Shown: positions 15,774 through 43,077, counted from the first letter of the stretch. The stretch is DNA of 64,000 nt from Candidatus Heimdallarchaeota archaeon (GCA_030603365.1 JAUVXV010000012.1:70462-134461); one strand, 5' to 3'. The notes: a model not told the origin generated them from the sequence alone. Numbers and translations: made by a program.

Positions 15774-15777
15774 TATT

Positions 15778-21146: not shown

Positions 21147-23144
21147 TTAGGTTTTCTTGCTTTTTCTATAATAATATAATAGAGGTAAGAATATAATTGA
21201 GGTTATGATGCTAAATGTAGATAAAGGAATGGTACTTGTTGGTATTGTCGGAGTAGGAGTTTCTGTTATAGTAGGAGTGGGAGTGGGAAATTCATAGTAA
21301 CCAGCTGCAGCTAACCATTCAAGAGATTTGGTTTGATTGTATTCATATTGAAAACCGTCATAATAATAGTATGAAGTAAAAGGATAAACAACACTATGAC
21401 AGTTAAAATACTCCCCACCATGCTCTTCTTGATTCATTTTTTCTCTATCAATTGCATGTATAATTGCTTTACGAACCGCTAATCCTCTTGTATACTCTTC
21501 TTTCCCTTCTTCAGTAAGATAAATGAAATTATTAGAACCTCCGATAAATGATCGTTTTAGATTGAATCCCATGAAGGAGAAACTTGCAGTAATAAATGAT
21601 TGAACATCGAATCTAGGGTCTTCTTGAAGGAGTTTTCTTTCTGTAGGAAATATAGTCAACCCTGTCCAATCCAATATTCCAGCTTTAAATTCTGATAATT
21701 CTAATGAAGCGTCAGGAATGGCATGAACATTTATTGTGCTTATATTCAGATATTGAATAGATCCATCTTTTGCACCAATATTCATCCAATAAGGACTGTT
21801 TGTCAAAACTGTTTTTGAATCATGTATAAAATAATCTAGCAGATATTTTCCACAACCAAACGCAGATATGCTAAAAGACTTCCATGTATCAGTAGCAACT
21901 ATTTCTGGATAAAGTCCAATGCATCTGACTCCTCCAGCAGTATATGTTATTGTTGAATCTGTTGAATTAAGGAAAAACTCCGGTAGAATCTCAAAAGACA
22001 TCCTATGCCAAAAATCACTATAAATTTCTTCTTCTGGAGTGGAATAGTCTTCGTCCACATGAATATGAAATGCAAGTTCATTTAGAGGGTCGATATAGAT
22101 GTCTGATATCCAATTATGATAAATTGTACTATTGCTTACAATTGGATTATTCCAAGCTAAAAATGTAAAAACTGCATCTTTTGCGGTTACTTGCTGATTG
22201 GTTCCATTACTATATTCTCCTTTTAATCCAACCATTAATTCTCCATCAGTGATTGTTTCCAAAGGAGGGGAAATTGCTGTTCGTACAGTAACATTGTAAG
22301 AGGGGTTCCAAAACAGATTATCTCGCAAAAAGAATTTGTAATGGGTAGCATTAATCATCTCCCAATCATGTACTAAACCTGAACTTGAAGGTACTAAATA
22401 AGGACTAAATTGTAAAATGGGTTCAGCCATCAAACTCCAGATGAAAGCACTGGAAGTATCATCATGAATTAGAGGATTTAAATCCCTCCAATTTGCGTCT
22501 GCCATGTTAAATTCATCTAAAGAAACTTGTCCTTCATGATAACCATCATAGTACATATATGGTAAGGAATCTACAATACCCCAACTCACATTATATTCTT
22601 CTGTATTTGCCCAAGTTCCTACATAGCTTTTAGGAGCATACAAAGGCATGAGAGGGATGATTTTATCCATCATAAGCTCTTGCCATTCATAATAGATTGG
22701 TCTTCTCTCTGAAGGCTCTATTAATGTCACACCAAGATTCTGTAAATATTCGCTTTCATTATAATAGGGAAGGTTATAATCTAATTGAAATATATTAAGT
22801 GAACCATCTGCAGTATAAACAGATCTCATATCTGGTGAAGAACCTCCACCTGATAAACCAACCACAACCAAATCAAAATCATGAGTAAGTAATAAAGTTC
22901 CAACAAAAACTGACCACTCTTCAACTTTAACTGTAACCTGTATACCAATTTTACTTAAATCATGGGAGATATGGAAACCATAATCTGGTCTAACTCCTCC
23001 ACCACTAGTTTTGAAAGTTAGATAAGCTATTGGCACAGAGAAATCTGCATTAATGAAAGGTGTTCCAATGTTTGTAGAACTAACAAATAATCCGAAAGAG
23101 AATAGAATCAAAAAAATAGTTTTTCTCTTATTCTTCTTACTCAT
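21147..23144 (-). CDS. Family-5 (OppA/DppA-like) solute-binding protein, circularly permuted, C-terminally anchored (copy 1)
   Basis: LNP...D, F.LRD...W, VTAKDAVFT, G.G.Y, VRKAI..AIDR, EWL.AAG; Thr/Pro linker and TM tail. Confidence 0.88.
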   Translation of the reverse strand: MSKKNKRKTIFLILFSFGLFVSSTNIGTPFINADFSVPIAYLTFKTSGGGVRPDYGFHISHDLSKIGIQVTVKVEEWSVFVGTLLLTHDFDLVVVGLSGGGSSPDMRSVYTADGSLNIFQLDYNLPYYNESEYLQNLGVTLIEPSERRPIYYEWQELMMDKIIPLMPLYAPKSYVGTWANTEEYNVSWGIVDSLPYMYYDGYHEGQVSLDEFNMADANWRDLNPLIHDDTSSAFIWSLMAEPILQFSPYLVPSSSGLVHDWEMINATHYKFFLRDNLFWNPSYNVTVRTAISPPLETITDGELMVGLKGEYSNGTNQQVTAKDAVFTFLAWNNPIVSNSTIYHNWISDIYIDPLNELAFHIHVDEDYSTPEEEIYSDFWHRMSFEILPEFFLNSTDSTITYTAGGVRCIGLYPEIVATDTWKSFSISAFGCGKYLLDYFIHDSKTVLTNSPYWMNIGAKDGSIQYLNISTINVHAIPDASLELSEFKAGILDWTGLTIFPTERKLLQEDPRFDVQSFITASFSFMGFNLKRSFIGGSNNFIYLTEEGKEEYTRGLAVRKAIIHAIDREKMNQEEHGGEYFNCHSVVYPFTSYYYYDGFQYEYNQTKSLEWLAAAGYYEFPTPTPTITETPTPTIPTSTIPLSTFSIITSIIFLPLLYYYRKSKKT

Positions 23145-23198
23145 ATTTATCAAATATACAATAATCTCACTTATTAAATACATTTGTTCAAGACATTA

Positions 23199-23570
23199 TC
23201 AAGACTTTTTTATGACATTTCTCAAAGAATTAATCCATGTATCCAAATCATTTACAAGCCAAGCAAGTGAATCTGATTGTCTCTCGATATTTGTGAATTC
23301 CACCTTAAGTAATTTTCTTGATTTTGTTTTTCCTAAATGACCTTTAGTAGTTTTAGCTTCATAGATTAAATTTAAAGGAATATGAAAATCTTTTCTAGGT
23401 AGATACATTCCAAAATAAAGCTCCTCTTCAGTAAGTATCAATAAACCATTTCCTCTAACCTGACCTATATCTAAAGATTCTTGCCTAAAAGAATTAGCAG
23501 AACTAGGTCCTAGAATAAGTGAAGAGTTGTCAAATTTATTAATTATTTGTTGTTTTCTTTTCTTGAACAT
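23199..23570 (-). CDS. Small PH/GRAM-like domain protein
   Basis: RGNG.LILT...LYF...IPL..I and C-terminal W....L..W...L helix. Confidence 0.6.
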   Translation of the reverse strand: MFKKRKQQIINKFDNSSLILGPSSANSFRQESLDIGQVRGNGLLILTEEELYFGMYLPRKDFHIPLNLIYEAKTTKGHLGKTKSRKLLKVEFTNIERQSDSLAWLVNDLDTWINSLRNVIKKS

Positions 23571-23581
23571 AGTTTCAACCT

Positions 23582-24442
23582 TTATTTTTTCTTCAGATAT
23601 TCCAAAATTGTATCTAGCATAGGTTTAGAGTGAGTATTTTTGTTTGTCTTCAAATCGATATATTCAGAATTCTTTATCATCTGGGTAATTTCTTGAGTAA
23701 TTTCTGTATTATGTAATCTGTCAACACTCTCATCAACAATGAGAACTCGATTGTCAATTCCTTTATATACATCCCAGAAATCTCTCTGAGCAAAATATTT
23801 TGAAGCTCTTTTCCATTTTATTGGATCTGATTCTCTTATCGAACGAGCATACTTAGCACCGTGTTCTTCATCTTCAGCTTTAAAATTCTTGACCCACCAA
23901 ATGCCAATAATTTTTACTATCGAACTTAGCCATAGAGGGACAATTACAATTAGGATTCTTATTGAACGAGGGATGGGTACTTTTTCAATTGGACCAATAA
24001 ACACACTAAGGTAAGGATCAATCATACCGTTCTTGAGCATATAAGCTACTAACATGGCACTGAAAGAGGAAGTAAGCATTACTACTTTTTCTTGTTTCAA
24101 ATCTAAAAATTCAAAAATTTCTTTTATGTCTAAAGCGAATCTCTCAATATCGAACTCAGCAGTTTTAGTGATTTTACTAGATCCCTTTTCTCTCGTTTCA
24201 ATGTACAAAATATTGAAATGCTTTTGGGCATCTAAAAGGAAATTGTCCCATCCCAATACTAAAGAAACCCATCCAGCTACTAAAACAAGTGTAAAAGGGT
24301 CTTTTTTAACAGCTTTAGTTAAGCTTTGAAGTATTCTTATTTCAGAACCATCAGAAACTTGTACATAAGAAATTTCTGCTGTTTTTTCATACTCAGCAAG
24401 AGAAATAAGATCGAATTTTGCATCTGCCTTTTTTTTACTCAT
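23582..24442 (-). CDS. Alpha/beta hydrolase (atypical elbow)
   Basis: LVAGW, ETREK.SS, F..DI, TSSFSA elbow, D.LH. Confidence 0.75.
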   Translation of the reverse strand: MSKKKADAKFDLISLAEYEKTAEISYVQVSDGSEIRILQSLTKAVKKDPFTLVLVAGWVSLVLGWDNFLLDAQKHFNILYIETREKGSSKITKTAEFDIERFALDIKEIFEFLDLKQEKVVMLTSSFSAMLVAYMLKNGMIDPYLSVFIGPIEKVPIPRSIRILIVIVPLWLSSIVKIIGIWWVKNFKAEDEEHGAKYARSIRESDPIKWKRASKYFAQRDFWDVYKGIDNRVLIVDESVDRLHNTEITQEITQMIKNSEYIDLKTNKNTHSKPMLDTILEYLKKK

Positions 24443-24525
24443 ATTTATAGTTTGATTTTCTTAAATTTAAATATTACACAATAATCTAGGTAAAAATTTA
24501 AAAGAAAGAAAAAAAATGTTAAATC

Positions 24526-25335
24526 ATGATTTTTGATGCAATTATTCTTGCAGGAAAAAGTGAAAAAGATAACGAGTTGATTCAAAAAGAAAAGGTATTT
24601 TCAAAACCTTTTTTAAAATTAGGAGACAAAATGTTTCTTGAACACCAAGTTGAAGTTCTTCGGCAAATAGATGGAATGAGAAATATCTACATTAGTGGAA
24701 TGTCAGAAAAAGAATGGAAAACCAAATTACCTGCACCAGTTATTTTTGATGAATTTGAAGCAGATATTATCGAAAAATTAAGACATTTTAGACGTGATAT
24801 TTTCACACCTGATACTGAACCTGATTATGTAATTATAGTATCCAGTGATATTCCATTAATCACCAAAGAAGCCATCGAAAGATTTTTGGAAAAATGTAAA
24901 CAATCAACTGATGGTGAGTTAAAAGCTTTATATTACATGAGCCTTATTGATGAAAAAGTGATGACCAGTAAGTTTCCAGAATCAAATAGAACTTACTTAA
25001 AACTTAGGGATGTAAAATGGTGTGCTGGAGATATGATGGTAGCCAAACCTTCCATTATTGATTCTCATGGAGATGTTCTAGATCAACTTGTTAACAATAG
25101 GAAATCAGTATTCAAGTCATTGTTTGTTCTAAGTCCCATGACTGTAATAAAAATTGCTATTGGCAGATTAACGATGGATGGTTTTAATGATGCTATTAAC
25201 AAATACCTATTCAAGAGACCAGACTCGTGTATAGGAGTACTTGCTGATGATCCAGAACTTGGAATGGATGTTGATAAACCATTTCAACTAGATATTGTAA
25301 GGGAGTATTATGAAAAAATAAGTAGAAATGATTAA
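24526..25335 (+). CDS. MobA-like NTP-transferase (nucleotidyltransferase family)
   Basis: DAIILAG, KPFL, SSDIPLI, RTY.KLRD, ELGMDVDKP. Confidence 0.8.
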   Translation: MIFDAIILAGKSEKDNELIQKEKVFSKPFLKLGDKMFLEHQVEVLRQIDGMRNIYISGMSEKEWKTKLPAPVIFDEFEADIIEKLRHFRRDIFTPDTEPDYVIIVSSDIPLITKEAIERFLEKCKQSTDGELKALYYMSLIDEKVMTSKFPESNRTYLKLRDVKWCAGDMMVAKPSIIDSHGDVLDQLVNNRKSVFKSLFVLSPMTVIKIAIGRLTMDGFNDAINKYLFKRPDSCIGVLADDPELGMDVDKPFQLDIVREYYEKISRND

Positions 25336-25337
25336 AC

Positions 25338-26198
25338 TTACATAATAGGAAAAACAGCAGCCATAACTGCTCCAATCCCCACAGAAACAATAATTGCAGA
25401 ACTAATTTGCCAATGGAAAGTTTCATTGATTTCTAAGGTATTCTTAATTTTTCTTTCTAGCTTTTCTGCAAGCTCTGGAGCACCCGAATGAAGAATAATT
25501 AGATTGTAATCAACTTCGATTGAAGTTTTCTTTCTTATTTCTGATACCATATTTCTTATTGCCCCTTCATATCCTAATCCACCGCCAAATCCCAGAACGC
25601 CTTCATCTAGTTTTACTTTGTATATTGGTTTTATCTTGAATAATGTTGTTGCTAAAGAGATTGGTAATGTTCTTTTTATTTTTCCTGATTTAAACAAATT
25701 CTCAAAGTCATTAGAAAAACCAATTGTATAGATTAAGTTTTTAATAGTATCAAATTGTTTGAAAATTTCATCTATTGTTTTATTTTCTTCAAGCATTTGA
25801 TTGGCTGTAAATATGAAAGGAGCTTGGCTTGGTCCAGCTAATTGAGTTGGATAATAATGGATTTTTAATTTATCGGAAACTCTTTTAGAAGCAATTCTTA
25901 CTGAATTAACTTGATTAGAGATTTTAGGTGTCATAAATGGATAGAGAATTTCCTTATGTCCTTCTTCTATGATCTCTTCAAAAAGTTCAAGAGCTTGATG
26001 AGGAGAGGCAAAACTAGTTGTTGGAAAAGGTTCAAGAGATGGGAATATTTCCATAAATTTGTTAATATCCACTTCAGACAATTCTTTTTTCATTTCTCCA
26101 TTAACTGCAACATTTATCTCTAGAACTGATGTCTTGTTCTTTTGTAAGTATTCTAAGGGAATCTGAGAGGTTGAATCTACCATCAATTTCATTTTCAT
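25338..26198 (-). CDS. DegV/FakB fatty-acid-binding protein (copy 1)
   Basis: DSTS.IP, PTTS..SP, ISNQ.NS, L.KSGKI, IKPI, VG.GA. Confidence 0.88.
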   Translation of the reverse strand: MKMKLMVDSTSQIPLEYLQKNKTSVLEINVAVNGEMKKELSEVDINKFMEIFPSLEPFPTTSFASPHQALELFEEIIEEGHKEILYPFMTPKISNQVNSVRIASKRVSDKLKIHYYPTQLAGPSQAPFIFTANQMLEENKTIDEIFKQFDTIKNLIYTIGFSNDFENLFKSGKIKRTLPISLATTLFKIKPIYKVKLDEGVLGFGGGLGYEGAIRNMVSEIRKKTSIEVDYNLIILHSGAPELAEKLERKIKNTLEINETFHWQISSAIIVSVGIGAVMAAVFPIM

Positions 26199-26358
26199 AG
26201 CAATTTCTGAAAGAATAAATCATTTAAAAAAATATCTAATTGAATACGAATATATCTAATTAATTATATGAAAATGGAAACATTCTTTTACAAAAACACA
26301 AGTACAATTATGAAATTATAAAAGTGAAAAGAAAAAAGAGAAAAAAAGTAATTTCAAG

Positions 26359-27231
26359 TTATTTGATTGAATCTAATGTAGGATAAAGTGTAACCATTGC
26401 AGTGCCATAACCAAGTGTATTTCCAACACATGGTGACATTTGCCAGTATTTCACACTTTCAATTTTCCTGATTTTCTTAAGGCTTTCCTCAAGTTTCTTT
26501 CCTAGTTTTTCATTTTTGACATGAGATATTATCATATTATAGGTTATATTGGCATCTGTTTTCTCTTCTGCAGCTTGAGTGATTTTCTTAATCGATCCAC
26601 CAAAACCTGCACCAGCACCACCACTAGAAAAACCTTTATCTTGTTCACTTGCATAGATAGGCTTCAAACTCATCAATGAAGAAATCATGGACATTTTTAC
26701 AGTCTTCTTAATTCTTCCTGTTCTGAACAAAATATCAAAACTGGTAGAAATACCATTAGAAAAAATGAGCGGTTTCATTTTATCAAGAGTTTTTGTTATA
26801 GTTGCAATAGATTCACCCTTCTCAAGTAATTCTTGAGCATAAAGTATGAAAGGAGCCTGACTTGTAGCAGAATATTCGGTTGGATAATAATGAACTTTGA
26901 GTTTATCTTTTACTTTTTTGTATCCAACTTGTACAGGTGATATCTGATTTGACATTGTAGGGGTCAAATAAAGATAAAGTGCCTCCTTGTAACCTTCATC
27001 AATAATTTGTTCGAATACTTCTAGAGCATCTTGAGGGTTAGCAACAGAAGTTTTGGGTACGGGATTCATTTTCGCCATTTTAGAAACAAAATCTTCATAG
27101 TCAACTTCTGATAACTCTTTAAAGTGTTCACCATCCAGTTCTATAGTGGGTTCAAAGAAAATAATATTCTTTTCTTTAGCGTATTCAATTGGAATCTGAG
27201 ATGTTGAATCGGTAATTATTTTTACTTTCAT
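26359..27231 (-). CDS. DegV/FakB fatty-acid-binding protein (copy 2)
   Basis: ITDSTS, PKTS..NP, L.RTGRI, LKPI, LG.GT. Confidence 0.9.
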   Translation of the reverse strand: MKVKIITDSTSQIPIEYAKEKNIIFFEPTIELDGEHFKELSEVDYEDFVSKMAKMNPVPKTSVANPQDALEVFEQIIDEGYKEALYLYLTPTMSNQISPVQVGYKKVKDKLKVHYYPTEYSATSQAPFILYAQELLEKGESIATITKTLDKMKPLIFSNGISTSFDILFRTGRIKKTVKMSMISSLMSLKPIYASEQDKGFSSGGAGAGFGGSIKKITQAAEEKTDANITYNMIISHVKNEKLGKKLEESLKKIRKIESVKYWQMSPCVGNTLGYGTAMVTLYPTLDSIK

Positions 27232-27560
27232 AGATACCGATTTCCAACAACTTTAGAGATATTTAAAGTTTATCTAATTTTATAAAAAAACATAACAGTA
27301 ATTTCAAAAGATTGGATTTACTTGCAAGAAATATTTCTCTTACTCCTGAATTTATTATCTTCTTTTCCTTCCTTAATATTTACTCTGCGAATACAACTTT
27401 CGAAAAGATTAACTGACATTATTGGAGAGAATTTTTACTATCAATCTAAATGCTAATGTTAAATAACAATATTTGTAAAGATTTTTACGATCTTTAATCA
27501 TTCAAAAACAATGTATGACTACTTAATATAGTTTAAATATAATAAAGAAAAAAAAACTTG

Positions 27561-28427
27561 ATGAAAATTAAAATCACGACAGATGTAACTACTAGTATCC
27601 CAAAGGAAATTGCTGATAAAAATGACATAGAATTTGTTGAATTTTATTTAAATATAAATGGAAAACCAACAAAAGAATTATCAGAGATAAACAGAGAGAA
27701 GTTCATGAATGAAGCTAAATTCATGACTCCTTATCCTACTTCCAATTTTCCTAGCCCACAAAATTATCTTGAAGCATTTCAGAAAGTTGAGGATAATGGA
27801 TATGATGAGATTCTCCATATAGGTCTTAGTTTGAATATCTCTGGAGCATTAAATTCAGCTAGAGTTGCTGCTAAGAGAATTAAGAAAACTAAGATTACTG
27901 TTTATGATAGTGGTATAATGGGACCCAGTCAAGGTACGATGGTTCTAATGGCTAGAAAGCTATTAAAGAAAGGTAAAAGTGTTGAAGAAGTAATTAAATA
28001 TTTAGAATCTGAGAAACTAAAAATTTATGGTGCAGGATGTTCGGAAAATTTTGATATCCTTTTCAAAACAGGAAGAGTAAAGAAAGGTGCAGGCATCACT
28101 GTTATGTCTTCACTTATGAGACTTAAACCTTTGTTTGAACTGAATTTTGAAAAAGGTGTAACAGGAATAGGAGGAGGAATGGGTTTTAGAGGGGCTATTA
28201 AAAAAATAGTTGCCAATATAATTGAAAAAACTGATGATAAAATAACATATGATCTTTTTATGACTGATGCTGGAGCACCTAAATTACTTAAGCGATTAGA
28301 AGAAGAGATTGTTAAAGTAAGAAAGATTAAAAATATTCATTACTGGCCTATGGTTTCTATGATGATTCATACTTGTGGAAAAGGTTCAATAATAGGAACT
28401 TTAAGTCCAACACTAGATGAGATTTAG
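27561..28427 (+). CDS. DegV/FakB fatty-acid-binding protein (copy 3)
   Basis: ITTD.T, PTS..PSP, LS..ISGA.NSA, VYDS, L.KTGRV, LKP, HTCG.G. Confidence 0.9.
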   Translation: MKIKITTDVTTSIPKEIADKNDIEFVEFYLNINGKPTKELSEINREKFMNEAKFMTPYPTSNFPSPQNYLEAFQKVEDNGYDEILHIGLSLNISGALNSARVAAKRIKKTKITVYDSGIMGPSQGTMVLMARKLLKKGKSVEEVIKYLESEKLKIYGAGCSENFDILFKTGRVKKGAGITVMSSLMRLKPLFELNFEKGVTGIGGGMGFRGAIKKIVANIIEKTDDKITYDLFMTDAGAPKLLKRLEEEIVKVRKIKNIHYWPMVSMMIHTCGKGSIIGTLSPTLDEI

Positions 28428-28771
28428 ATCTGTTTAGAATATATCTGGTATATTTGTTTGAAAAAAAGTAAAAGAGTACATTGTAACTAGCTCCATCAAA
28501 CCTCTTTAAGCTCTAGCTTAATTCCAATGAAAGTTACAAGAGTAAGTACAAGTAAAGTAGAACATGTTAGGTAAGCAAGTTAATACCAGATATATTTACC
28601 TAGAGGAAGTATGAATTGAACAGTAAGTACAAATATGTTAAGATATAGATTCTTCTGATTCCATGGAAACAAACTTCCATTGCTGGATATTGCTTCTTCT
28701 TTTTATTCAAGAATAAAAAGCAATTTCAAACGATTGGAGTTACTAAAAAGAAAAGAATAAGGAGAGTCTGA

Positions 28772-29332
28772 TTAGTACCAAACTCTTTTAAAACCCATTT
28801 TGTAACCTATGAAACTGAATAATATATGGAAGAAGAATGTTATACTAGCAAGAATAACAAAGTAGTACCAAAGGTATTCTCCAAAAGGTAGCATGGCTGG
28901 TGCAGCAACTGCAAATCCAGTTAGTATATATCCCATTTGATCCCATGGGAATAGACCACTTCCAGGTTTGATATTGATTCTTCTTTTAATGAATGAACCC
29001 AGCAAATCTGCAATATGATTTCCTATTGAGAAAAGTAATCCAATATATATAGGATAGTTACAAGGGAAAACATTTCCATAGAACCATCCAAGACCAAAAG
29101 GATCAGCAAAGAAAATTGATATAAGCACTCCACTCACTGTACCTCCTATTAGACCAAAGATGATACCTTTCCAGGTTTTATTATCTCCAAAGATTCTTCT
29201 CCCTTTCCAGATTTTTCCACCATCAACAGGTTTACCTCCACCCCATAGATTAGCAAAGGTACTTGTTTGATACATAGGTTGGGCAAAAATAATAGCAATA
29301 AGTATATGCCAGCCGTAAGCAAATTCTGCCAT
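28772..29332 (-). CDS. carS: CDP-archaeol synthase (CarS/DUF46) homologue
   Basis: GGG.PVDGG...GRRIFGD.KTW.G and DL.GSFIKRR...DQ motifs. Confidence 0.88.
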   Translation of the reverse strand: MAEFAYGWHILIAIIFAQPMYQTSTFANLWGGGKPVDGGKIWKGRRIFGDNKTWKGIIFGLIGGTVSGVLISIFFADPFGLGWFYGNVFPCNYPIYIGLLFSIGNHIADLLGSFIKRRINIKPGSGLFPWDQMGYILTGFAVAAPAMLPFGEYLWYYFVILASITFFFHILFSFIGYKMGFKRVWY

Positions 29333-29388
29333 GAGGTATGTGTTAAGAAGTATAATAAAAAGTTTGCGAGTAAATGAAGTAAAAAAAC

Positions 29389-29438
29389 ACACAGCCTAAT
29401 TAATGTGTATTTTACAATACAAGTTAATAAATATGTAT
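29389..29438. promoter_or_regulatory. Two tandem palindromic boxes A(C/T)ACA-N12-TGTAT upstream of satD (candidate operator)
   Basis: ACACA-gcctaattaatg-TGTAT (29389-29410) and ATACA-agttaataaata-TGTAT (29417-29438). Confidence 0.5.
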
Positions 29439-29465
29439 TTATATTTATATTAATATTCTTTCACG

Positions 29466-30551: not shown

Positions 30552-32816
30552 TCATTTCTTACTTCTTTTTCTAAATTTTTTGAGACTTATAGATACAACT
30601 GTAATAACTGCAGACATGATAATAATGGAATAAGAATCTATAGTTATAAACGAGTTTGTATCTATATTTGGTATGAAATCAATTATGAAACTTCTAGTTG
30701 GGGTTCTCTTAGACTCATTATAGATGTTCGTATACTCAACATAGTATTCTATTTTAGTTCCATTTGTGAATTCTGAACCGATATTAAGAGAATAAATACT
30801 TTCAGATTCCTTAATCATGCTAGATGAGTTGAACCCCTCATCATTCTGTTCATAAAATAAAACTACTGGATCAATACCTAAATCTCCAGAACAATTGAAT
30901 TGTATAGTTATATCTTTGTCACTCGCTTCAGCATTTAGAATATTGAAAGAATATTCAGGTAACCCATAACTATCTCTTAACCATTCTTCAGCTAATTCAG
31001 GATTGTAATCATACTTGATGATATCATTATAGTAATAATATGAAGTATAAGGATAAAGAACACTATGAGCAACTAAGTATTCTCCATCATGTAGTATTTG
31101 GTTCATTTCATCTCTATTAATTGCGTAGCAGATTGCTTTACGAATTCCAACGGCACGTGTATAATCTTCTTTTCCCTCTGTTTCCATGAAGATAAAATTA
31201 TCTACCCCACCAATAAATGGTCTTCTCAAATTGAATGCCATAAATGTAAGACTGTTTGATAGTTTCTGATAAACTGTGAATCTGGGATCAGTTTCCATAT
31301 TTTTCCTTTCAGCTGGGAATGCAGTTATACGTGTCCAATCAAGTTTCCCTGCCTTGAATTCCATAAGTTCTGCAGAAGTATCAGGAATAACTCTAACATT
31401 AATTGTTTCAACAAAAGGAACCAAACCGGCTTGACCATCAAATGCACCAACTCCAAACCAGTATGGGCTTTGCTTTAGAACTGTTATTGAGTTTTGAATG
31501 TAGTAATCTAACATATACTTACCACAACCAAATGCAGAAGTACTGAATGCTAACCATTGATCAGTATTGATGATTTGCGAATACAATCCTTTGCACTCTA
31601 TTCCACTCTCAGTATATGTGATTTCAAGTAAGGTAGAATTGAGGAAAAACTCTGGTAGAATACTACTAGTCATTCTACTCCAGAAGTCAACATAATAATC
31701 TGGTTCTGCTGTTTCTGGAATTCCATCAATATGTATATGAAACGCTAAAGGATCAAATGGATCAACGTAACAATCTGAAATCCATTCATGCCCTATTGTT
31801 TCTTCACTCACAGCTTGATTACCCCAACAAAGAAATGTAAAAACAGCATCTTTAGCAGTAACTTGTTGATTAGTGCCATTACTGTAATTTCCTTTAAGCC
31901 CAACCATCAATTGATTGATATCTGATGAATTCAAAGGAGAAGATCCTGAAGTTCTTCCTGTGACATTAAAAGATGGGTTCCAATACACTTCATCTCTCAT
32001 ATAGAATTTGAAATGGAAGTCATCAATTTTTTCCCAATTATCTATTAAACCATTCTTTACAGGAGCAAGATCTGGACTGAATTGTAGGATTGGTTCAGCC
32101 ATTAAACTCCAGATGAATGAACTAGAAGTATCGTCAGTAAAAAGAGGATTGAGTTCTCTCCAGTTTGCATCAGCTAGGTTGAACTCATTTAATGATACTT
32201 GACCTTCATGATAGCCATCATATGACATATATGGTAAACAGTTAACAATACCCCATCTGGCATCATAACCAAGCGTATTTGCCCAAGTTACAGAATAAGA
32301 ATTAGGTGAGTACAAAGGTAACATGGGTACGATTTTATCCATCATAAGTTGTTGCCAATCATAATAAAGCTGTTGTCTAACTTCAAGATCAGTAATAGTT
32401 ACACCAAGATCTTGCATTTGCTCACTTTGGTTACCATATGGTAAGTCTGGACCTAATCTAAAAATATTCAAAGTTCCATCTTCTGTATAGAGCTCTCTCA
32501 TATCTGGAGATGCTCCACCTCCAGAAATACCAACAATTCCTAAATCCCAATCATTTAAACTCCAGGGATCCCACGGCCAGGACCACTCTTGCACTTTGAC
32601 TTCTACATCTATGCCAATCTCTCTCAGATACATTGCTATGTATAACCCATAATCTGGTCTAACACCACCACCATAAGTTTCCAAAACAAGATTGGCAATT
32701 GGTTGATTTATTTCAGAGAATATAATAGAAGGAGTTATGGAAATTGCACTTAAACTTGTTATAAAAACTAAAGTTATTATTAATCTCATCTTATTTCTTG
32801 AAACTGTTTTTCCCAT
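30552..32816 (-). CDS. Family-5 solute-binding protein, circularly permuted, extra Ig-like domain and C-terminal TM (copy 2)
   Basis: Same motif set and order as copy 1. Confidence 0.88.
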   Translation of the reverse strand: MGKTVSRNKMRLIITLVFITSLSAISITPSIIFSEINQPIANLVLETYGGGVRPDYGLYIAMYLREIGIDVEVKVQEWSWPWDPWSLNDWDLGIVGISGGGASPDMRELYTEDGTLNIFRLGPDLPYGNQSEQMQDLGVTITDLEVRQQLYYDWQQLMMDKIVPMLPLYSPNSYSVTWANTLGYDARWGIVNCLPYMSYDGYHEGQVSLNEFNLADANWRELNPLFTDDTSSSFIWSLMAEPILQFSPDLAPVKNGLIDNWEKIDDFHFKFYMRDEVYWNPSFNVTGRTSGSSPLNSSDINQLMVGLKGNYSNGTNQQVTAKDAVFTFLCWGNQAVSEETIGHEWISDCYVDPFDPLAFHIHIDGIPETAEPDYYVDFWSRMTSSILPEFFLNSTLLEITYTESGIECKGLYSQIINTDQWLAFSTSAFGCGKYMLDYYIQNSITVLKQSPYWFGVGAFDGQAGLVPFVETINVRVIPDTSAELMEFKAGKLDWTRITAFPAERKNMETDPRFTVYQKLSNSLTFMAFNLRRPFIGGVDNFIFMETEGKEDYTRAVGIRKAICYAINRDEMNQILHDGEYLVAHSVLYPYTSYYYYNDIIKYDYNPELAEEWLRDSYGLPEYSFNILNAEASDKDITIQFNCSGDLGIDPVVLFYEQNDEGFNSSSMIKESESIYSLNIGSEFTNGTKIEYYVEYTNIYNESKRTPTRSFIIDFIPNIDTNSFITIDSYSIIIMSAVITVVSISLKKFRKRSKK

Positions 32817-32946: not shown

Positions 32947-35175
32947 CTAAGTTGCCAATTTTCTTTTTTTTGCAATTAAATACGGTATTAAAAGAATTAA
33001 ACCAAATAGGGAGAAAGATATAGTTACTGATGGTAAAGTTGTATATTCCGTTCCTACTATAAAGAAATAATCAATTGAAATAAACTGCCCTACTTTTGCT
33101 GTTGCAATTTTAAGATAAAACGTCACATTATCAGTGATGTTGAAAGATGAGCCAAAGTTGTATACAAACACATTGTCATTTTCTTCGTTCATACTGTGCT
33201 CTTGCCAGTTATTACTATTAATTTTGTAGCGAACAACTGTGCTGACTACATCAGCTGAATCCCCATAATCAATAGTCAGGGTTATGTTATCATGAAAGTT
33301 ATTCTTATTTTCAATATCAACAGTAAAATCAGGAATACCTCCAAGAACTGCGCCTAACCACTCTTTTGATTTATCAAGATTGAAATCATATTTGATAATA
33401 TCATTGTAATAATAATATGCAGTATAAGGAAAGAGGACACTATGAGCAATTAGATATTCACCGTTATGTAGTATCTGATTCATTTCATCTCTATCGATTG
33501 CATAACATATGGCTTTACGAATAGCAACACCAACAGTATAATTCTCTTTACCTGGTTCGTTCAACCATTCAAAATTGCCAGTACCACCTATCAGAGGTCT
33601 TCGAATATCGAAAGCTAAAACTCTCAAACTATTTGAGATGAAGGTTTGAATATCATATGTAGGATCACCCCAAGGATCCGATAATGAACTCACTTGGTCT
33701 GCACTACACCAATCTAGTTTACCTTCTACAAATTCGTTGAATTGATCTATTTCATTAGATATAATTAGAATATTTATAGTTTCAATATCTAAGTCTTGAG
33801 TTGTACCATCAATACCTCCAATACCTAGCCAGTTAGGATTTTTTCTTAGAACAGTGATAGAATCTTTAATAGAATAATCTAGCATATACTTTCCACATCC
33901 AAATGCAGAATAAGAATAATTGCTCCACTGTGGAGTCTCAACAATTTCTGGATAAAGTCCTCTACATTCAGCGCCTCCATCTGTATAAGTGATATCTGAT
34001 CTTGAGGAATTTAAAAAGAATTCAGGTAGAAAACCAACATTCATTTTAGACCAAAAATCAACATAGTGTTCATTTTGTGGCGTATCTGGGAGACCATCTA
34101 TGTGAAGGTGGAAAACTAGAGGATCAACTGGATCAACATATAAATCTGATATCCAGTCATAGGAGTGAGATTCCTCATTTAGAAGGTTGCTCGCCCAGTA
34201 GGAAAGCGTAAAAACTGCGTCTTTCGCAGTTACTTGTTGATTTGTACCATCACTAGTCTCATTATTCTTAAGTCCCTTCATAAGCTGTTCAGCAGGTACA
34301 GCGCTTAATGGGATAGATCCTTCATCTCTTTCTGTTGTATTGTAAGATGGGTTCCAATAAACATTGTCTCTCAAATAGAATTTATAATGAAAATCTTCCA
34401 CTTCTTCCCAATCAAAAACTATACCAGTTATTAGTGGAACTAGATCGGGACTAAACTGTAAAACAGGTTCAGATACAAGATCCCAAATTAATTCTTCAGA
34501 TTCATCATTAATTCGAGATGGAAGAAGATCCCCCCAATTATTCCCATGCATATTGAATTCAGTAAGAGATGTTTGACCTTCGTGATAACCTTCATATTCC
34601 ATGTAAGGTAAGGAACCTGCAATTCCCCATCTTCCTTCATAGCCTAAGGTATTACCCCATGTTGCTACATACTTTCTCTGTGCATACAGTGGTAACATTG
34701 GAACTATTTTATCCATCATCAATTCTTGCCAATCATAATAGTGCTGTTGTCTTTGATTCAAATCTGTAATGTTAATTCCTTCTTGCTGCATCTGCTCACT
34801 AAGAGCACCATAAGGAATATCAGGAGCAAGAAGGAAAATATTCTTTGAACCTCCATCAGTGTAATACTCCCTCATATCAGGGGAATCACCGTCATCCTCA
34901 AAATCAACAATCCGCATATCAAAACTAGGCAAACTGGGTATACCTGGAAATACAGACCATTCTTCTGTTTTAACTTCAATATTCATTCCAATATCTCCAA
35001 GATATTGAGCAATGTAAAACCCATAATCAGGCATAACTCCCCCTCCTTCTACCATTAGAACGAAATTGGCAAAAATAGATTTGGATAAATCAATCTCACT
35101 ATTTACATAATTCATAGGAGTACTCAAGAAGGCTATTATCAATAGCGTGCATAGGATTTTTCGTCTGCAAACCAA
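32947..35175 (-). CDS. Family-5 solute-binding protein, circularly permuted, extra Ig-like domain and C-terminal TM (copy 3, most diverged)
   Basis: Same motif order; VTAKDAVFT, IRKAICYAIDR. Confidence 0.87.
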   Translation of the reverse strand: MVCRRKILCTLLIIAFLSTPMNYVNSEIDLSKSIFANFVLMVEGGGVMPDYGFYIAQYLGDIGMNIEVKTEEWSVFPGIPSLPSFDMRIVDFEDDGDSPDMREYYTDGGSKNIFLLAPDIPYGALSEQMQQEGINITDLNQRQQHYYDWQELMMDKIVPMLPLYAQRKYVATWGNTLGYEGRWGIAGSLPYMEYEGYHEGQTSLTEFNMHGNNWGDLLPSRINDESEELIWDLVSEPVLQFSPDLVPLITGIVFDWEEVEDFHYKFYLRDNVYWNPSYNTTERDEGSIPLSAVPAEQLMKGLKNNETSDGTNQQVTAKDAVFTLSYWASNLLNEESHSYDWISDLYVDPVDPLVFHLHIDGLPDTPQNEHYVDFWSKMNVGFLPEFFLNSSRSDITYTDGGAECRGLYPEIVETPQWSNYSYSAFGCGKYMLDYSIKDSITVLRKNPNWLGIGGIDGTTQDLDIETINILIISNEIDQFNEFVEGKLDWCSADQVSSLSDPWGDPTYDIQTFISNSLRVLAFDIRRPLIGGTGNFEWLNEPGKENYTVGVAIRKAICYAIDRDEMNQILHNGEYLIAHSVLFPYTAYYYYNDIIKYDFNLDKSKEWLGAVLGGIPDFTVDIENKNNFHDNITLTIDYGDSADVVSTVVRYKINSNNWQEHSMNEENDNVFVYNFGSSFNITDNVTFYLKIATAKVGQFISIDYFFIVGTEYTTLPSVTISFSLFGLILLIPYLIAKKRKLAT

Positions 35176-36667: not shown

Positions 36668-36668
36668 T

Positions 36669-37304: not shown

Positions 37305-37667
37305 AACAGTTTACTATATGTGCTAAAGCATTTATGTATTTTTTCCCAACAGAGATGGAACTTTTCTCTGTATAAATTGAAGTAAGTCAATAACATGTTA
37401 AAATGAGCAGAAACCTATTTTTTTGGGTTTTCCATTCTAATCCACTAAGAAAGCAGATTCTTTGTGAAATAGAACACATAGTAAAAAAAATCGCAGATTT
37501 CGAATATATGAAAATCTTAGATATACAAAATTAAATTAAAAAAATTATTATTAAATATCAATTTAGTTTTAAATAAATATATTTTACTTTAAATAACAAT
37601 TATATTGATGTTCTTATAAATAGAAAGATTATTAAATAGTCAAAGGCATTATTTATTTGTAAAAATA

Positions 37668-37774
37668 ATCCACTTATGTGGATGCAAAGCTGTTAGAATC
37701 TTAAATTTCGTTTGACAGTCACTGTGAAAATCGCTGTCTACTTGCGTCACATCAAGGGAAAAATGACCTTTGAT
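37668..37774 (+). ncRNA. Candidate structured leader RNA upstream of Zn-finger gene
   Basis: Five hand-found helices including a three-way junction; GC-richer than flanks. Confidence 0.35.
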
Positions 37775-37831
37775 TAATTTAGATTACATATCACAATTAT
37801 ATCTAATTTAAGTTAAAAAGTTAAAAAAGGA

Positions 37832-38083
37832 TTGAATCTAAAAGGAGGTGTATCAATTCTGAAATGCAACCATGAATGCTCTGATTGTGGAGAAACCTGG
37901 GTATGCTCCGTTAATTATTACTCAAATTACCATTCTTTAACAACAGAAGTTAATCACGGATATTACTGTAATTCGTACTGCCCAAGTTGTAAAGAAGAAG
38001 AACGGAGTACTCTTGATGCTCTCTTCAATAAGACTGATCAATATGGGTATACTCGCTCAGTTAGTAAACAAATAGTCAGATAG
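37832..38083 (+). CDS. Small Cys/His-rich Zn-finger protein
   Basis: CNHECSDC...C...HGYYCNSYCPSC; strong SD AAGGAGGTG at 37842-37850 suggests the real start is ATT 37856 or CTG 37859. Confidence 0.65.
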   Translation: MNLKGGVSILKCNHECSDCGETWVCSVNYYSNYHSLTTEVNHGYYCNSYCPSCKEEERSTLDALFNKTDQYGYTRSVSKQIVR

Positions 38084-38131
38084 CAGATTTATTTGATACT
38101 ATTCAAAGTGTAAGATTTTCGAAAACAGGAA

Positions 38132-39154
38132 TTAAAGTGTACAAAATCCTATGGTCTTGGGTTTTCCATTTAAATCTACAAGAAAAGCAGGTTCTTCATG
38201 AAAGAACACAATTTCCTTTTCTAATTTAAGTTTGATAAGATAAATATCTTTATCTTTTTCCTTAGCTGGAGTGTATGCAAGAATCCTTGCAGGAACAGCC
38301 TGTAATCCGATTATTAAGTGTCTCATTTTTCCTTCTTCTGGTAACTTAGAATAAGGAGCAATTTCTAATCTCACCTCAATTTCCGAAGTAATTGTCCAAC
38401 TGACATTAGTGGATAGAATAAAACCTCTTTCTACGTCCTTTGGTAACAACCCTCTAAGTGCTAGACCTACTCGTTGTCCATTTTCTCCAGAATTATAATT
38501 CACATCGTTTATTTGAATAGAGCGTAGAACACAATTTCGTTTTGATGGAAAAGCATGTAGAGTTTCTCCTCTAGTTATTGTACCAGATCTTACTCTCCCA
38601 AGTATAACTGTACCAACACCAGTAACTGGAAAAACATGGTCAACATCTACTCTAGAATGATCTCCTGAAGCCCAGTGCTGTTCCATTCTACTATCATATT
38701 TTTGTAATATCAAATCCTTAAGCTGAGAGAGACTTTCTACTTTTGAAAGATCGATATCCAAAATAGGATATTCTCCAATGATCATATTCTTGAAAAGTTT
38801 ACGGAAATTTCCCGATACTTCTTCAACGTTAATCTAATCACCCTGATGAACAACTGCAACAATGCTATTTCTAAATTTAAGAGCATCCAGAAGAATACCA
38901 AATTCTCCAGTATGTACATCTATACCAGAGGAAGAAATAAGAATTATAGGCACATCTGTCATCAAGATTGTTTAAAAAAGAACAAGAGGTTTATCGGGGT
39001 ATCTTAGTGGATCAACCACTTCTAAACAAAACTCTTTGTCATAACTATATAAACAGATATCGGAACTTGTAGCTTTCTTACCTAATTGTTTAGCTAATTT
39101 TTCTCTTAGGTCTGGATCACTACCTAGAAGATAAGTGCATATAGTTTTAGTCAT
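38132..39154 (-). pseudogene. Archaeal SelB-like elongation factor (aSelBL/MM1309 family) with two in-frame stops (TAA 38972-38974, TAG 38834-38836)
   Basis: One frame, 340 codons: LGKKATSSDI..Y.DKE, YP, GIDVHTGE..I.LD.L, VDHVFPVTGVGTV.LG, RSIQ..D, RVGLAL, RGF. Confidence 0.85.
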
Positions 39155-39228
39155 TCCAAGCTGAATGAAAATAATCAGTATAAAAAAATAATTCTATTAG
39201 AGATTAAGATAATAGTTTAGGTTCTATC

Positions 39229-40662
39229 TCATTTTGTAGATTTGTTCTTATTTCTAATCGGAGTGAATTCCTTGACTTCCTTTAAAGAAAGGAACATGAA
39301 ACTTAATAGAAATCTCATAACTGCCACAAACGCAAGAGCTATTGTTAGTGCAAGTCCAAATGTATCCAGCATAACATTTTGCCCAACTAACGTATGTGTA
39401 AAAAGATTGTTAGAGAATACGGTTGATATGTTTGATGTTAAAATAAATGATACACCTGTTTTATTAAAGAGCATTTCTGCTACATCAACAAAATATCCCC
39501 CAAAAAGTGTCCCAATGAAGTAACAAACACCTGTTACCATACTTAGAAATCCAATATATAATCCACTGTCTCTTTTTGGAGTAATATCTAGGATGTAAGC
39601 GTTTACTCCAGCGAAGCTAAAACTGAAGAGGCTAGCTATTATTAAATGGATTATGTAAAGATGCCATATTTGTGTAGCAAAAATATAGGCTAAAGGAAAT
39701 AGGAATAAACCAAAACGATTCAGAAAAATCATCTTAGTTCGACCATATTTATCTGTTACCCTAGACCCAATTAGAACGAAAATAAGTGAAGTAACTGCAA
39801 AAATAACCTCTAATATGGCTATTTCCATAGCTTCAGCATTTAAAACATTCACTTGTTTCAAGCTAAATAATGGCCAAGAAAAGGTCCAAAAGATACCTGC
39901 AATAGCATAGAGAATTGTAAATTTCATGAAAGGTTTGTTTTTGATAATTTCCTTGAATCCTTCTTTCAATGATTTAGATATTTTAGCAGCTTCTACACCT
40001 TCTCTCAATAGTGGTTCCTTTACTTTTCTAAAAGGTAAAACAGCAATTATAGATATGCAAACACCAATTAATACAGGGATGTAAATATATTTCTGATAAT
40101 TAATATTCGGTCCAAAAATATAAGTTAGAATGACACCTGTAGTAAGAGTAGCGAGCATACTACCAAACGAACCAAACCAGGTAACTCTTCCAGTAAGTTT
40201 ACCTCTTACTTCAGCCGGAAAGAGCTCATTCTGCAGAGATATCCAAGCAGGATTACCAAAACTACTTAGAATGTTGACAATTGCAGCAATAAGAATAATG
40301 AATGCAGGAGCTTGAACAAAATAAAGAAAGGCATAGGGAATAATCCAAGTAATTGTAGAAATTACGATGAATGGAATTCGTCTCTTCATCATATCAGAAA
40401 GACGACCGAAGATAGGATCAAGAAACTGTCTAAGTAAATTAGAAATTGCTTGAATCCAAGCTACAATTCCAGCTGATGCGCCCATTTTTATAGCAATAAA
40501 CGAAACAAAAGGACTTACTAATCCATTTGATGTGCTTACAGCTAAAGAACGAGAATAGATCGCGATTGCTTCTTCTTTCTTAATATGCGGAATGTCAGCA
40601 GATTTAGTTTCATCTACGTGAATGATTTCAGATGGAAGAGAATCTATTCTAGAATCAGTCAT
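39229..40662 (-). CDS. MFS transporter
   Basis: G.LSD...RR and RVTDKYGR motif A copies; about 12 TM segments. Confidence 0.9.
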   Translation of the reverse strand: MTDSRIDSLPSEIIHVDETKSADIPHIKKEEAIAIYSRSLAVSTSNGLVSPFVSFIAIKMGASAGIVAWIQAISNLLRQFLDPIFGRLSDMMKRRIPFIVISTITWIIPYAFLYFVQAPAFIILIAAIVNILSSFGNPAWISLQNELFPAEVRGKLTGRVTWFGSFGSMLATLTTGVILTYIFGPNINYQKYIYIPVLIGVCISIIAVLPFRKVKEPLLREGVEAAKISKSLKEGFKEIIKNKPFMKFTILYAIAGIFWTFSWPLFSLKQVNVLNAEAMEIAILEVIFAVTSLIFVLIGSRVTDKYGRTKMIFLNRFGLFLFPLAYIFATQIWHLYIIHLIIASLFSFSFAGVNAYILDITPKRDSGLYIGFLSMVTGVCYFIGTLFGGYFVDVAEMLFNKTGVSFILTSNISTVFSNNLFTHTLVGQNVMLDTFGLALTIALAFVAVMRFLLSFMFLSLKEVKEFTPIRNKNKSTK

Positions 40663-40788
40663 GAATAAGAAAAACATAAGGAAATGCTCTAAAACTTTGT
40701 GATAGAATTTTGGTAATTCGCAAGAAGTTCAGAAAACAATAATAAGAGAGAAAAAAAGAGTTTTAGATCTTTTCTCTGTCCTTGAATC

Positions 40789-43077
40789 TTAATTTCTTTT
40801 CTTTCTTTTGTATATAGATAGGATAACAAGCATTGCAATGGAATAAAGGATAAATATAGTTGAGCTATGGCTTACTACAGTTGTTGGATTTGTGGTAGTT
40901 GTTGGAATTGTTGGTGTAGAAGTAACAATCAACTCAGTCGTATTAGAAATAAATTCAGAGGTATCTGTCAAATGGACTTCATCATATTTGTTCGTCATTT
41001 CTATAAAGAATGAAATTGTCACATTTTCTTGGAAAGTTTTACTGATGCCACAGGTAAAAACATCTTCAGCTTCTTCGAGCATAGATACTGTTTCTTGGGA
41101 TCCTCCATTAATAGTGTATTTCAGAACGCAATCAGTAATTCCTGGTCCGGATGTACAATCAATTGTAACTAAAATGTCTTCGGAAGTAAGATATTGATTC
41201 TCAATTTCTATAGAGTAAAAAGGTAAACCAAGTGCCGCTCTTAGCCATTCTTCTGCTAAAACTGGATTGTAATTGTACTTGATAATATCATTATAGTAGT
41301 AGTATGCTGTGAATGGATAAAGAACACTGTGAGCAAGAAAATATTCTCCATCATGAAGTTGTTGATTTATCTCATCCCGGTCGATAGCGTAACATATAGC
41401 CTTTCTGATTCCTACCGCTCTTGTATATTGAGTTTTTCCTGGTTCTGGTATATATTCAGCATTATAACCTCCACCGATAAAAGGACGTCGTAGGTTGAAA
41501 AACATAAAAGATAAACTTGCTGTGATAAAAGTCTGTACATTAAATCTTGGATCTGCTTGCATAATTTTTCTTTCAGCTGGGAATGCGGTTAGACCGGTCC
41601 AATCCAATTTTCCTGCCTTGAATTCTGCTAATTCAGCAGAGGAATCAGGAATAATACGAACGTTGATTGATTGGATATTTAAATCTTGGACAGCACCATC
41701 AATTGCGCCTACACCAAACCAATGAGGACTTTTTTGTAGAACTGTTACGGAGTTTTTGATGTAGTAATCTAACATATACTTACCACAGCCAAATGCGGAT
41801 GTACTGAATGTAGCCCACTCAGGTGTGTTTAGCATTAGTGGATATAGACCAACACACTCAATTCCACCATCTGTGTATGTTACAGTTGGATCTGTTGAGT
41901 TCAAGAAGAATTCTGGCAAAATGTCCCATGGGAGTCTTGCCCAAAAGTCTGCGTATTGTTCGACTTCAGGGGTATCTGGATTTCCATCTATAAGAACATG
42001 GAATTGCAACGGATTTACTGGATCAACATAACATTCAGAGATCCAATAATGAAAAGTTGTACTTTCACTGATTGTTGGGTTTGACCAAAGCAGATAGGTA
42101 AAAACTGCATCTTTAGCAGTAACTTGTTGGTTAGTACCATCGCTGTATTCTCCATATTTCAAACCTAGCATCAATTCACCTGTTGGAATGCTGCTTAGTG
42201 GGTCAGAACTTGCTGCTCTTCCAGTAACGTTGTAGGATGGGTTCCAATAGACATCGTCTCTCATGGTGAATTTGTAATGGAATTCATCAATTTGTTTCCA
42301 ATCTTCAACTAGACCAGTTTTTAGAGGTGCAAGATCTGGACTATATTGCACAATGGGTTCAGCCATAAGACCCCAGATGAATGAACTTGATGTATCATCT
42401 GTGAACAATGGGTTGAGTTCTCTCCAATTTGCATCTGCAAGATTGAATTCAATTAATGATTCTTGCCCTTCATGATAACCATCATATTCCATGTAAGGTA
42501 AGGAATCAGTTATTCCCCATCTACTATCATACCCCTCTGTATTTGCCCATGTTGCTACATAGGATCTTGGTGAGAAGAAAGGTAGTATTGGAACTATTTT
42601 GTCCATCATTAACTGCTGCCAATCGTAATAGAGCTGCTGTCTTTCTTCAAGGTCAGTTATTGTAACACCAACTTCTTGCATTTGTTCACTTTGGTCATTA
42701 TAGGGAATTTCAGGGCCTAATTGAAATATATTCAAAGAACCATCCTCTGTGTAAATATCCCTCATATCTGGACTTGCACCTCCACCAGATAATCCAATGA
42801 ACCCCAAATCAAAATCATGAGTAACTAATATAGTATTTATAAAAACTGGCCATTCTTCAACTTTGACCTGAACATCTATTCCTATATCATTTAGATAACT
42901 AGCAATGTATAAACCATAATCTGGTCTTACACCTCCGCCACTAGTTTTGAATACTAAATGTGCTAGTTGTTGATTTATTTCAGAATTTACATTAATAACA
43001 TTTGATGAAGATGAGCTTAATATAAATATGATTTGAAATATTGTTAGAATTACTATCTTTTTCTCTCTTTTACTCAT
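40789..43077 (-). CDS. Family-5 solute-binding protein, circularly permuted, extra Ig-like domain, Thr linker and C-terminal TM (copy 4)
   Basis: Same motif set and order as copies 1-3. Confidence 0.88.
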   Translation of the reverse strand: MSKREKKIVILTIFQIIFILSSSSSNVINVNSEINQQLAHLVFKTSGGGVRPDYGLYIASYLNDIGIDVQVKVEEWPVFINTILVTHDFDLGFIGLSGGGASPDMRDIYTEDGSLNIFQLGPEIPYNDQSEQMQEVGVTITDLEERQQLYYDWQQLMMDKIVPILPFFSPRSYVATWANTEGYDSRWGITDSLPYMEYDGYHEGQESLIEFNLADANWRELNPLFTDDTSSSFIWGLMAEPIVQYSPDLAPLKTGLVEDWKQIDEFHYKFTMRDDVYWNPSYNVTGRAASSDPLSSIPTGELMLGLKYGEYSDGTNQQVTAKDAVFTYLLWSNPTISESTTFHYWISECYVDPVNPLQFHVLIDGNPDTPEVEQYADFWARLPWDILPEFFLNSTDPTVTYTDGGIECVGLYPLMLNTPEWATFSTSAFGCGKYMLDYYIKNSVTVLQKSPHWFGVGAIDGAVQDLNIQSINVRIIPDSSAELAEFKAGKLDWTGLTAFPAERKIMQADPRFNVQTFITASLSFMFFNLRRPFIGGGYNAEYIPEPGKTQYTRAVGIRKAICYAIDRDEINQQLHDGEYFLAHSVLYPFTAYYYYNDIIKYNYNPVLAEEWLRAALGLPFYSIEIENQYLTSEDILVTIDCTSGPGITDCVLKYTINGGSQETVSMLEEAEDVFTCGISKTFQENVTISFFIEMTNKYDEVHLTDTSEFISNTTELIVTSTPTIPTTTTNPTTVVSHSSTIFILYSIAMLVILSIYKRKKRN

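Follow-up and report, generated by a model that had tools for sequence, protein, structure and literature searches.

Four paralogous open reading frames (ORFs; P0001 to P0004) on the minus strand of a 64,000-nt stretch of a Candidatus Heimdallarchaeota archaeon genome (the window; positions 21147-43095 for the four genes) encode circularly permuted solute-binding proteins (SBPs) of family 5 (PF00496), the family that contains the Opp-, Dpp- and Nik-type receptors of ATP-binding cassette (ABC) importers. The window corresponds to G000:C4:70462-134461 in a host genome (G000) of 3.65 Mb on 17 contigs. From N to C terminus, the chains consist of a signal-like N terminus, the old C-terminal third of the canonical protein, a linker, the old N-terminal two thirds, a Thr/Pro stalk, a transmembrane (TM) helix and a basic tail (Table 1). 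We read the window copies as members of an expanded set of orphan, permuted and tethered receptors that feed distant Opp-type OppBCDF cores, and we put the probability of this functional reading at about 0.65. The four proteins are 48-66% identical in pairwise comparisons over their common domain, and G+C is 30-36% over the four-gene region. An earlier note on this DNA had ended the region at 43077, which is the seventh codon (Met) of the P0004 ORF (40789-43095, minus strand).

All four proteins exceed the PF00496 gathering cutoff of 32.4 bits (93-125 bits), with matches that are split and in reversed order: positions ~3-280 of the profile begin to match only at residue ~255-320, and positions 291-354 match N-terminal residues ~47-110. 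In NCBIfam, P0004 residues 63-191 match positions 416-543 of the 556-position Opp4A profile. Among PDB sequences, P0004 residues 49-190 match AppA (1xoc) 364-503, residues 478-619 match AppA 218-340, and residues 219-285 match 5u4o 51-115; no permuted family-5 chain was among the PDB matches listed. Overall, residues ~43-192 correspond to the canonical C-terminal third and residues ~225-627 to canonical residues 1 to ~345. We also ran a profile built from 41 permuted family members (A1) on 14 ordinary family-5 proteins from bacteria, other archaea and the host genome itself (its own OppA). In nearly all of these, A1 positions 215-617 aligned to canonical residues ~8-370 and positions 33-182 to canonical residues ~371-525, with domain E-values down to 1e-21; the exception, L092, gave the first match (215-617) only. 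The gap between the two matches at the cut is only ~14 residues, and the two ends of the permuted domain are therefore neighbors in the canonical chain. A colinear order, with the domain I/II segment first and the C-terminal third last, was not found against Pfam, NCBIfam, PDB sequences or the 14 canonical proteins, and because the segment order is reversed we class the four proteins as a permuted variant of family 5 and not as ordinary members. A phmmer search with the canonical OppA of the genome matched none of the permuted copies, and profiles were therefore needed.

An AlphaFold2 model of the whole P0004 chain (predicted local distance difference test [pLDDT] score, 88; predicted template modeling [pTM] score, 0.81) has the bilobed, three-domain fold of DppA and OppA. 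By VIA-align, model residues 215-623 superpose on residues 1-340 of DppA (1dpe) with Z 21 over 321 residues and a root mean square deviation of 3.2 Å, about 50 other family-5 entries superpose similarly, and Z is 20-22 for model residues 204-624 against DppA, AppA, NikZ, MoaA and others. The isolated N-terminal piece (P0004 residues 40-169), which was modeled on its own, aligns to DppA 339-471, AppA 349-482, OppA 380-504 and the C-terminal thirds of about 40 further family-5 proteins with Z 5.7-7.4, weak values that are expected because the fragment is not compact. The two pieces were aligned separately, and their ranges are consistent and abut one another. In the predicted structure, the permuted chain opens in lobe II, at a point ~345 residues along the canonical chain, and the linker connects the old termini in lobe I; since the N- and C-terminal ends of the permuted domain both lie on lobe II, the tether would leave from that lobe and not from lobe I. 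The circular permutation claimed in the earlier note is thus borne out by Pfam, NCBIfam, PDB sequences, the 14 canonical proteins and two AlphaFold models, as are the particulars that it gave or anticipated, namely split PF00496 matches in reversed order in all four proteins, a cut after the KAK..LL.EAG-type helix, a conserved linker between the original termini, and a relocated C-terminal tether.

The linker is 32 residues long, and its pattern (WGI..SLPYM.Y.GYHEGQ.SL.EFN....NW) is kept in all four copies and in the family consensus. In each of the four proteins the old N-terminal two thirds end at an ...EWL.AA.G helix. Between the binding domain and the stalk, P0002 to P0004 carry a predicted β-sandwich of ~90 residues, within which a Pfam scan of P0004 gave no match; the domain is missing from P0001, which has the Thr/Pro stalk only, and from most of the ~650-aa homologues. 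Sequence inspection and the model place an export signal and a membrane tether in all four proteins, and the sequence of the P0004 N terminus suggests that it would be cleaved as a signal peptide. We rejected the idea that the C-terminal tail is a Loki-CTERM sorting signal (NF033507), as P0004 scores 10.2 bits against an NCBIfam cutoff of 19.9 and P0001 to P0003 give no match.

Table 1. Positions of the four permuted binding-protein genes and of their segments in the window (coordinates counted from the first nucleotide of the window).
Feature	Coordinates	Strand	Description
P0001	21147-23183	(-)	678 aa; permuted family-5 binding protein with Thr/Pro stalk and TM anchor; PF00496, 102 bits
P0001, PF00496 match			profile 29-279 at residues 324-630
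P0001, old C-terminal piece	22584-23033	(-)	
P0001, linker	22488-22583	(-)	
P0001, old N-terminal piece	21288-22487	(-)	
P0001, stalk and TM helix	21150-21287	(-)	
P0002	30552-32828	(-)	758 aa; permuted family-5 protein with extra β-rich domain and TM anchor; PF00496, 112 bits
P0002, old C-terminal piece	32256-32702	(-)	
P0002, linker	32160-32255	(-)	
P0002, old N-terminal piece	30951-32159	(-)	
P0002, tail	30555-30950	(-)	
P0003	32947-35175	(-)	742 aa; permuted family-5 protein in tandem with P0002; PF00496, 93 bits
P0003, old C-terminal piece	34630-35076	(-)	
P0003, linker	34534-34629	(-)	
P0003, old N-terminal piece	33331-34533	(-)	
P0003, tail	32950-33330	(-)	
P0004	40789-43095	(-)	768 aa; permuted family-5 protein, copy used for modeling; PF00496, 125 bits
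P0004, residues 1-37	42985-43095	(-)	signal-peptide-like (KREKK, then hydrophobic run); model helix 9-31, disorder 29-39
P0004, residues 43-192	42520-42969	(-)	canonical C-terminal third; AppA, Opp4A, 14-protein and fragment-model alignments
P0004, residues 193-224	42424-42519	(-)	linker of old C and N termini, WGITDSLPYMEYDGYHEGQESLIEFNLADANW
P0004, residues 225-627	41215-42423	(-)	canonical N-terminal two thirds, ending at the ...AEEWLRAALG helix; PF00496 29-276 at residues 317-621
P0004, residues 628-716	40948-41214	(-)	extra β-sandwich (Ig-like), nine predicted strands, pLDDT 82-91
P0004, residues 717-768	40792-40947	(-)	Thr/Pro-rich low-pLDDT stalk, TM helix 745-767, basic tail KRKKRN

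The four proteins had been described as a family of four, a count that proved far too low. The host genome encodes 21 colinear permuted copies (14 of the window type, 1 more distant, and 6 of a second subfamily) versus one canonical OppA, which lies on C2 beside its own OppBCDF; in all seven of the distant and second-subfamily copies the PF00496 match starts at residue ~255-260. At least 275 clusters (50% identity) from a library of 1.84 billion representatives match the permuted profile at E values of ≤1e-30, and the best 150 of these 275 matches are all colinear with it. All members that bear a name are Asgard or Heimdall and fall in six GTDB families, the close homologues being labeled Heimdallarchaeaceae or Heimdallarchaeota by their sources. 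Taxonomic searches with the genome collection covered Asgard genomes: among 400 genomes of the phylum, strong matches were found in 30 of 30 other genomes of the window's family and in 12 of 12 genomes of family f7, and targeted searches found the permuted order in families f2, f4, f5 and f9, the last of which lies in another class and has a genome assembled as a single contig. Two loci of "Candidatus Bathyarchaeia archaeon isolate SMAG_U14241" (L042 and L098) were rejected as signs of spread beyond Asgard archaea; the hit coordinates in the genome of L042 are identical to those in G090, a genome of family f7 in the window's class, so that its label looks wrong, and L098 carries the same isolate name.

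This breadth also bears on the idea that the permuted order was created from tandem genes by misassembly or faulty gene calling. The genes do often occur in tandem arrays, but the 21 copies of G000 are intact and distributed over eight contigs, the same order is found in the single-contig genomes G004, G015 and G016 and, across many samples, in no fewer than 275 protein clusters. A signal sequence and an anchor are present in each copy, and the full-chain model of P0004 is confident. An artifact of this kind is already contradicted, and we consider it virtually inconceivable.

Proteins of ordinary chain order also occur in this group. These canonical-order Heimdall proteins (L112, identical to P0279, along with L111 and P0280-P0349, one of them annotated as "Oligopeptide-binding protein AppA precursor" in Heimdallarchaeota LC_2) share their C-terminal architecture (Thr stalk, TM helix and basic tail) with the permuted proteins and are their nearest relatives by sequence; segment by segment, they are 30-45% identical to permuted subfamily 2. 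When L112 was the query, ~55 ordinary-order Heimdall clusters matched over 83-100% of its length, and permuted subfamily 2 ranked lower, with ~57% of the query covered. The subfamily-2 linker, LTGIDALLLSTGADRYEYWDAPSDHIIKYAIPTDLDEY, has one half that corresponds to the C-terminal end of L112 (LTGIDALLLST..EW) and another that corresponds to the start of the mature L112 protein (..IYALPYDFTEF).

For phylogenetic analysis, canonical rows were re-ordered in silico to the permuted order, and a tree of 73 proteins was inferred by a quick IQ-TREE search under LG+G4; MAFFT alignments were used because hmmalign truncated many of the re-ordered rows. The tree was rooted on 17 canonical proteins from outside the canonical-order Heimdall clade, leaving an ingroup of 41 permuted and 15 canonical-order Heimdall rows. 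The canonical-order Heimdall rows form one clade (Shimodaira-Hasegawa-like approximate likelihood ratio test [SH-aLRT] support, 98) that is sister to permuted subfamily 2 (100). The permuted proteins of f5 and f9 branch outside these two, and the other branch holds the window's subfamily together with f4. An approximately unbiased (AU) test, for which the group was named after the first tree had been seen, rejects a single permuted clade (P = 3.5e-40 with 56 rows; P = 1.7e-4 and a log-likelihood difference of 104 with 73 rows). The tree searches were quick and used a single-matrix model, many rows deviate in composition, and canonical Asgard proteins are thinly sampled. The nesting of a canonical clade within the permuted radiation, together with the AU test, indicates that chain order has switched at least twice. 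The earlier description of the family as lineage-specific consequently stands insofar as all named members are Asgard, and fails insofar as the family does not reflect a single clean event.

The cut lies at the same place in all permuted lineages, which makes a single permutation with a single later return to the ordinary order a more parsimonious history than parallel permutations on four or more occasions, and we lean, at little better than even odds, toward the canonical-order Heimdall clade being a reversion from the permuted order. Two proteins, P0160 (1772 aa) and P0167 (1695 aa), carry two tandem permuted binding domains per polypeptide and are plausible intermediates in such switching. 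A further-reaching proposal, which we regard as a minority possibility, is that chain order is switchable within this one Asgard family: a single permutation would have moved the tether from lobe I to lobe II, one lineage would later have reverted through double-domain intermediates, and the two orders would be functional alternatives, determining how tethered receptors approach those Opp permeases that bear a large extracytoplasmic module (the LVIVD propeller, for example). If this is true, the apparent back-and-forth would rank among the few documented examples of reversible circular permutation.

The ligand class, the choice of translocator and any functional benefit of the relocated tether are inferences. 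The products of the four genes would be receptors with the cluster C (family 5; Opp/Dpp/Nik) fold that act outside the cytoplasm, exported by means of an N-terminal signal and tethered to the membrane through the C-terminal stalk and TM helix. Each of the 21 paralogues most likely binds its own ligand, with peptides as a first guess, and would hand it to one of two OppBCDF systems that lack a family-5 gene of their own (G000:C3:109468-115120 and G000:C14:148357-154327). These are two of the three Opp-type cores in the genome, the third being that of C2 with the canonical OppA; neither includes a PF00496 binding-protein gene, and the OppB of C14 is an 870-aa fusion with LVIVD repeats (G000:C14:151715-154327).

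We read the window copies as dispersed receptors of these two SBP-less cores because permuted homologues adjoin OppBC(DF) in other lineages. In G054, from the same order (family f4), a permuted SBP gene, a 248-aa gene, OppB, OppC and two further permuted SBP genes follow one another on one strand, and these permeases resemble those of C3 most closely. In G004, from another class (family f9), a permuted SBP gene is divergent from a complete OppBCDF set that is closest to that of C14. In genus g17 (family f7), OppDF and OppBC genes that are orthologous to those of C14 are found 4 kb away from a permuted gene, and this cluster contains no other binding protein. The binding proteins at all of these loci are colinear with the permuted profile. 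A weak additional thread comes from L046 (genome G081), where genes for two LVIVD proteins (12015-17157) come directly after a tandem array of three permuted genes; the two proteins are 39-45% identical to the LVIVD protein of the window. The earlier statement that the family has no transporter partners is thus correct locally and for Heimdallarchaeaceae-type genomes but does not extend to three other Asgard families, and of the two functions that had been offered with it, service as receptors for a distant ABC core is favored by these adjacencies and by the absence of a family-5 gene from the C3 and C14 systems.

Several observations weigh against this assignment. None of the 21 copies in G000 has a gene for a BPD_transp_1 permease or Opp-type ATPase as its neighbor, which extends to the whole genome the earlier remark that no OppBCDF genes flank the four window copies, and none of ~27 Heimdallarchaeaceae-type loci has Opp genes next to the permuted copy. 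In an alignment to 3m8u the proteins have GLSGG where HbpA/DppA-type proteins have GWSGD, replacing Asp with Gly; this Asp presumably holds the peptide amino group in DppA and, if so, canonical peptide binding is not assured. Upstream of the C3 OppBCDF genes is an unannotated 485-aa gene without a Pfam match (G000:C3:107034-108491), which could be an unrecognized binding protein. Finally, the permuted gene of genus g17 shares its transcription unit not with OppBC but with a MacB/FtsX-type ABC pair.

The lack of a transporter gene beside any of the 21 copies or ~27 related loci would also fit proteins that have been repurposed at the cell surface as envelope components, adhesins or sensors and deliver nothing to an ABC translocator. 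The Ig-like domain added in three of the four window copies and the other surface proteins encoded nearby (DUF3604, NosD-like β-helix and LVIVD propeller proteins) point the same way. The Asgard archaea in culture live on peptides, and their family-5 binding proteins are abundant, dominant N-glycosylated surface proteins (PMC11284389; bioRxiv 10.1101/2025.02.26.640444). This background suits the receptor reading, but the role of such a protein as the dominant surface glycoprotein of cultured Asgards without an S-layer lends the repurposing alternative further support. Against it stand the permuted homologues in or beside OppBC(DF) operons of three other Asgard families, the two Opp translocators of G000 that would otherwise have no receptor, and N-glycosylation sequons that are not enriched (4-10 observed versus 5.5-6.4 expected). 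On balance we consider repurposing unlikely.

A different transporter could also be served, and here the candidates are a major facilitator superfamily (MFS) carrier and a MacB/FtsX-type ABC system. The MFS gene lies 112 bp downstream of P0004 (39229-40677), and an orthologue adjoins a permuted copy in L023; the pairing is found only in close relatives, however, and MFS carriers are not known to depend on such proteins. For the FtsX-type system, loci of genus g17 (L019:1571-7298, L020 and L021) have an ABC ATPase, a 950-aa double-FtsX permease and the permuted gene, in this order, on one strand, a unit that is transcribed divergently from OppF-OppD and is an unusual pairing for a binding protein. 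The same g17 locus also has OppBCDF without another binding protein, and no FtsX gene of G000 lies near any of the 21 copies. We regard either partner as very unlikely, and delivery to the distant Opp cores remains our preferred assignment.

Compared with canonical family-5 proteins (Escherichia coli DppA, 1dpp/1dpe; Bacillus subtilis AppA, 1xoc; E. coli OppA, 3tcf; NikA/NikZ), the window proteins have the same fold, domains and Pfam family, are predicted to be secreted and membrane tethered, and have Opp-type permease neighbors in other Asgard lineages. They differ in the permuted order, with a cut at about canonical residue 340-360 and a 32-residue linker, in the predicted lobe II tether, in the β-sandwich of three of the four copies, and in the location of the G000 genes away from translocators. 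Systems with many receptors and few translocators, some receptor genes being far from permeases, are known from Borrelia (OppA1-5; PMC5736914) and Pseudomonas (DppA1-A5; PMC4206461). Those receptors have the canonical order, whereas the window's genome has 21 putative permuted receptors for at most two or three translocators.

Natural circular permutation by duplication and trimming is known from swaposin/saposin and from DNA methyltransferases, which likewise keep the fold and shift the termini; the tandem double-domain proteins are possible intermediates here, and the order seems in this case also to have switched back. ABC-importer binding proteins are a textbook conserved fold and a favored biosensor scaffold; a large natural permuted family shows where the fold tolerates new termini and offers ready-made permuted scaffolds. 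Permuted periplasmic binding proteins have been engineered for biosensors (e.g., PMC6335823). Full-text literature searches, the coverage of which was incomplete, found only such engineered proteins and no natural case among family-5 binding proteins; natural permutation in the Opp/Dpp family is apparently undescribed, in agreement with the earlier note, whose author knew of no description. In Heimdallarchaeaceae the permuted proteins make up the bulk of peptide-type receptors (21 of 22 in G000), and the automatic label "ABC transporter substrate-binding protein" conceals both their different architecture and the encoding of their probable translocators elsewhere.

Within the window, no Opp permease or ATPase gene was found, and the sole ABC genes are those of an ABC-2 exporter (56820-59049). 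The neighbors of the four genes encode proteins that are unrelated or belong to other surface types, among them a tetratricopeptide repeat (TPR) protein, three DegV paralogues, CarS and SatD. The gene directly upstream of P0004 encodes a membrane protein of 737 aa that contains a DUF3604 (PHP-like) domain and is followed by an activase-like cluster of a BcrAD/BadFG-type ATPase and two DUF2229/HGD-D-like proteins (all within 43142-48532, minus strand). Further upstream on the minus strand are a NosD-like right-handed β-helix protein (49360-51162) and an 828-aa LVIVD propeller protein (51349-53835). NosD-like genes lie near permuted copies in 5 of ~27 loci, but this protein type is greatly expanded, with ~75 paralogues in the 3.65-Mb genome, so that such proximity is expected by chance and we dismissed them as partners. 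An LVIVD propeller also occurs in a 963-aa ORF elsewhere in the genome (G000:C1:588027-590918), fused with a segment that gives two BPD_transp_1 matches.

The whole window contains no tRNA gene and no Rfam family, including the segment from 60001 to 64000, where G+C rises to 41.7% versus ~33% elsewhere. The three DegV paralogues (25338-26198, 26359-27231 and 27558-28427) lie beside the CDP-archaeol synthase gene (28772-29392); bacterial DegV proteins bind fatty acids, which makes them odd neighbors for an archaeal lipid gene.

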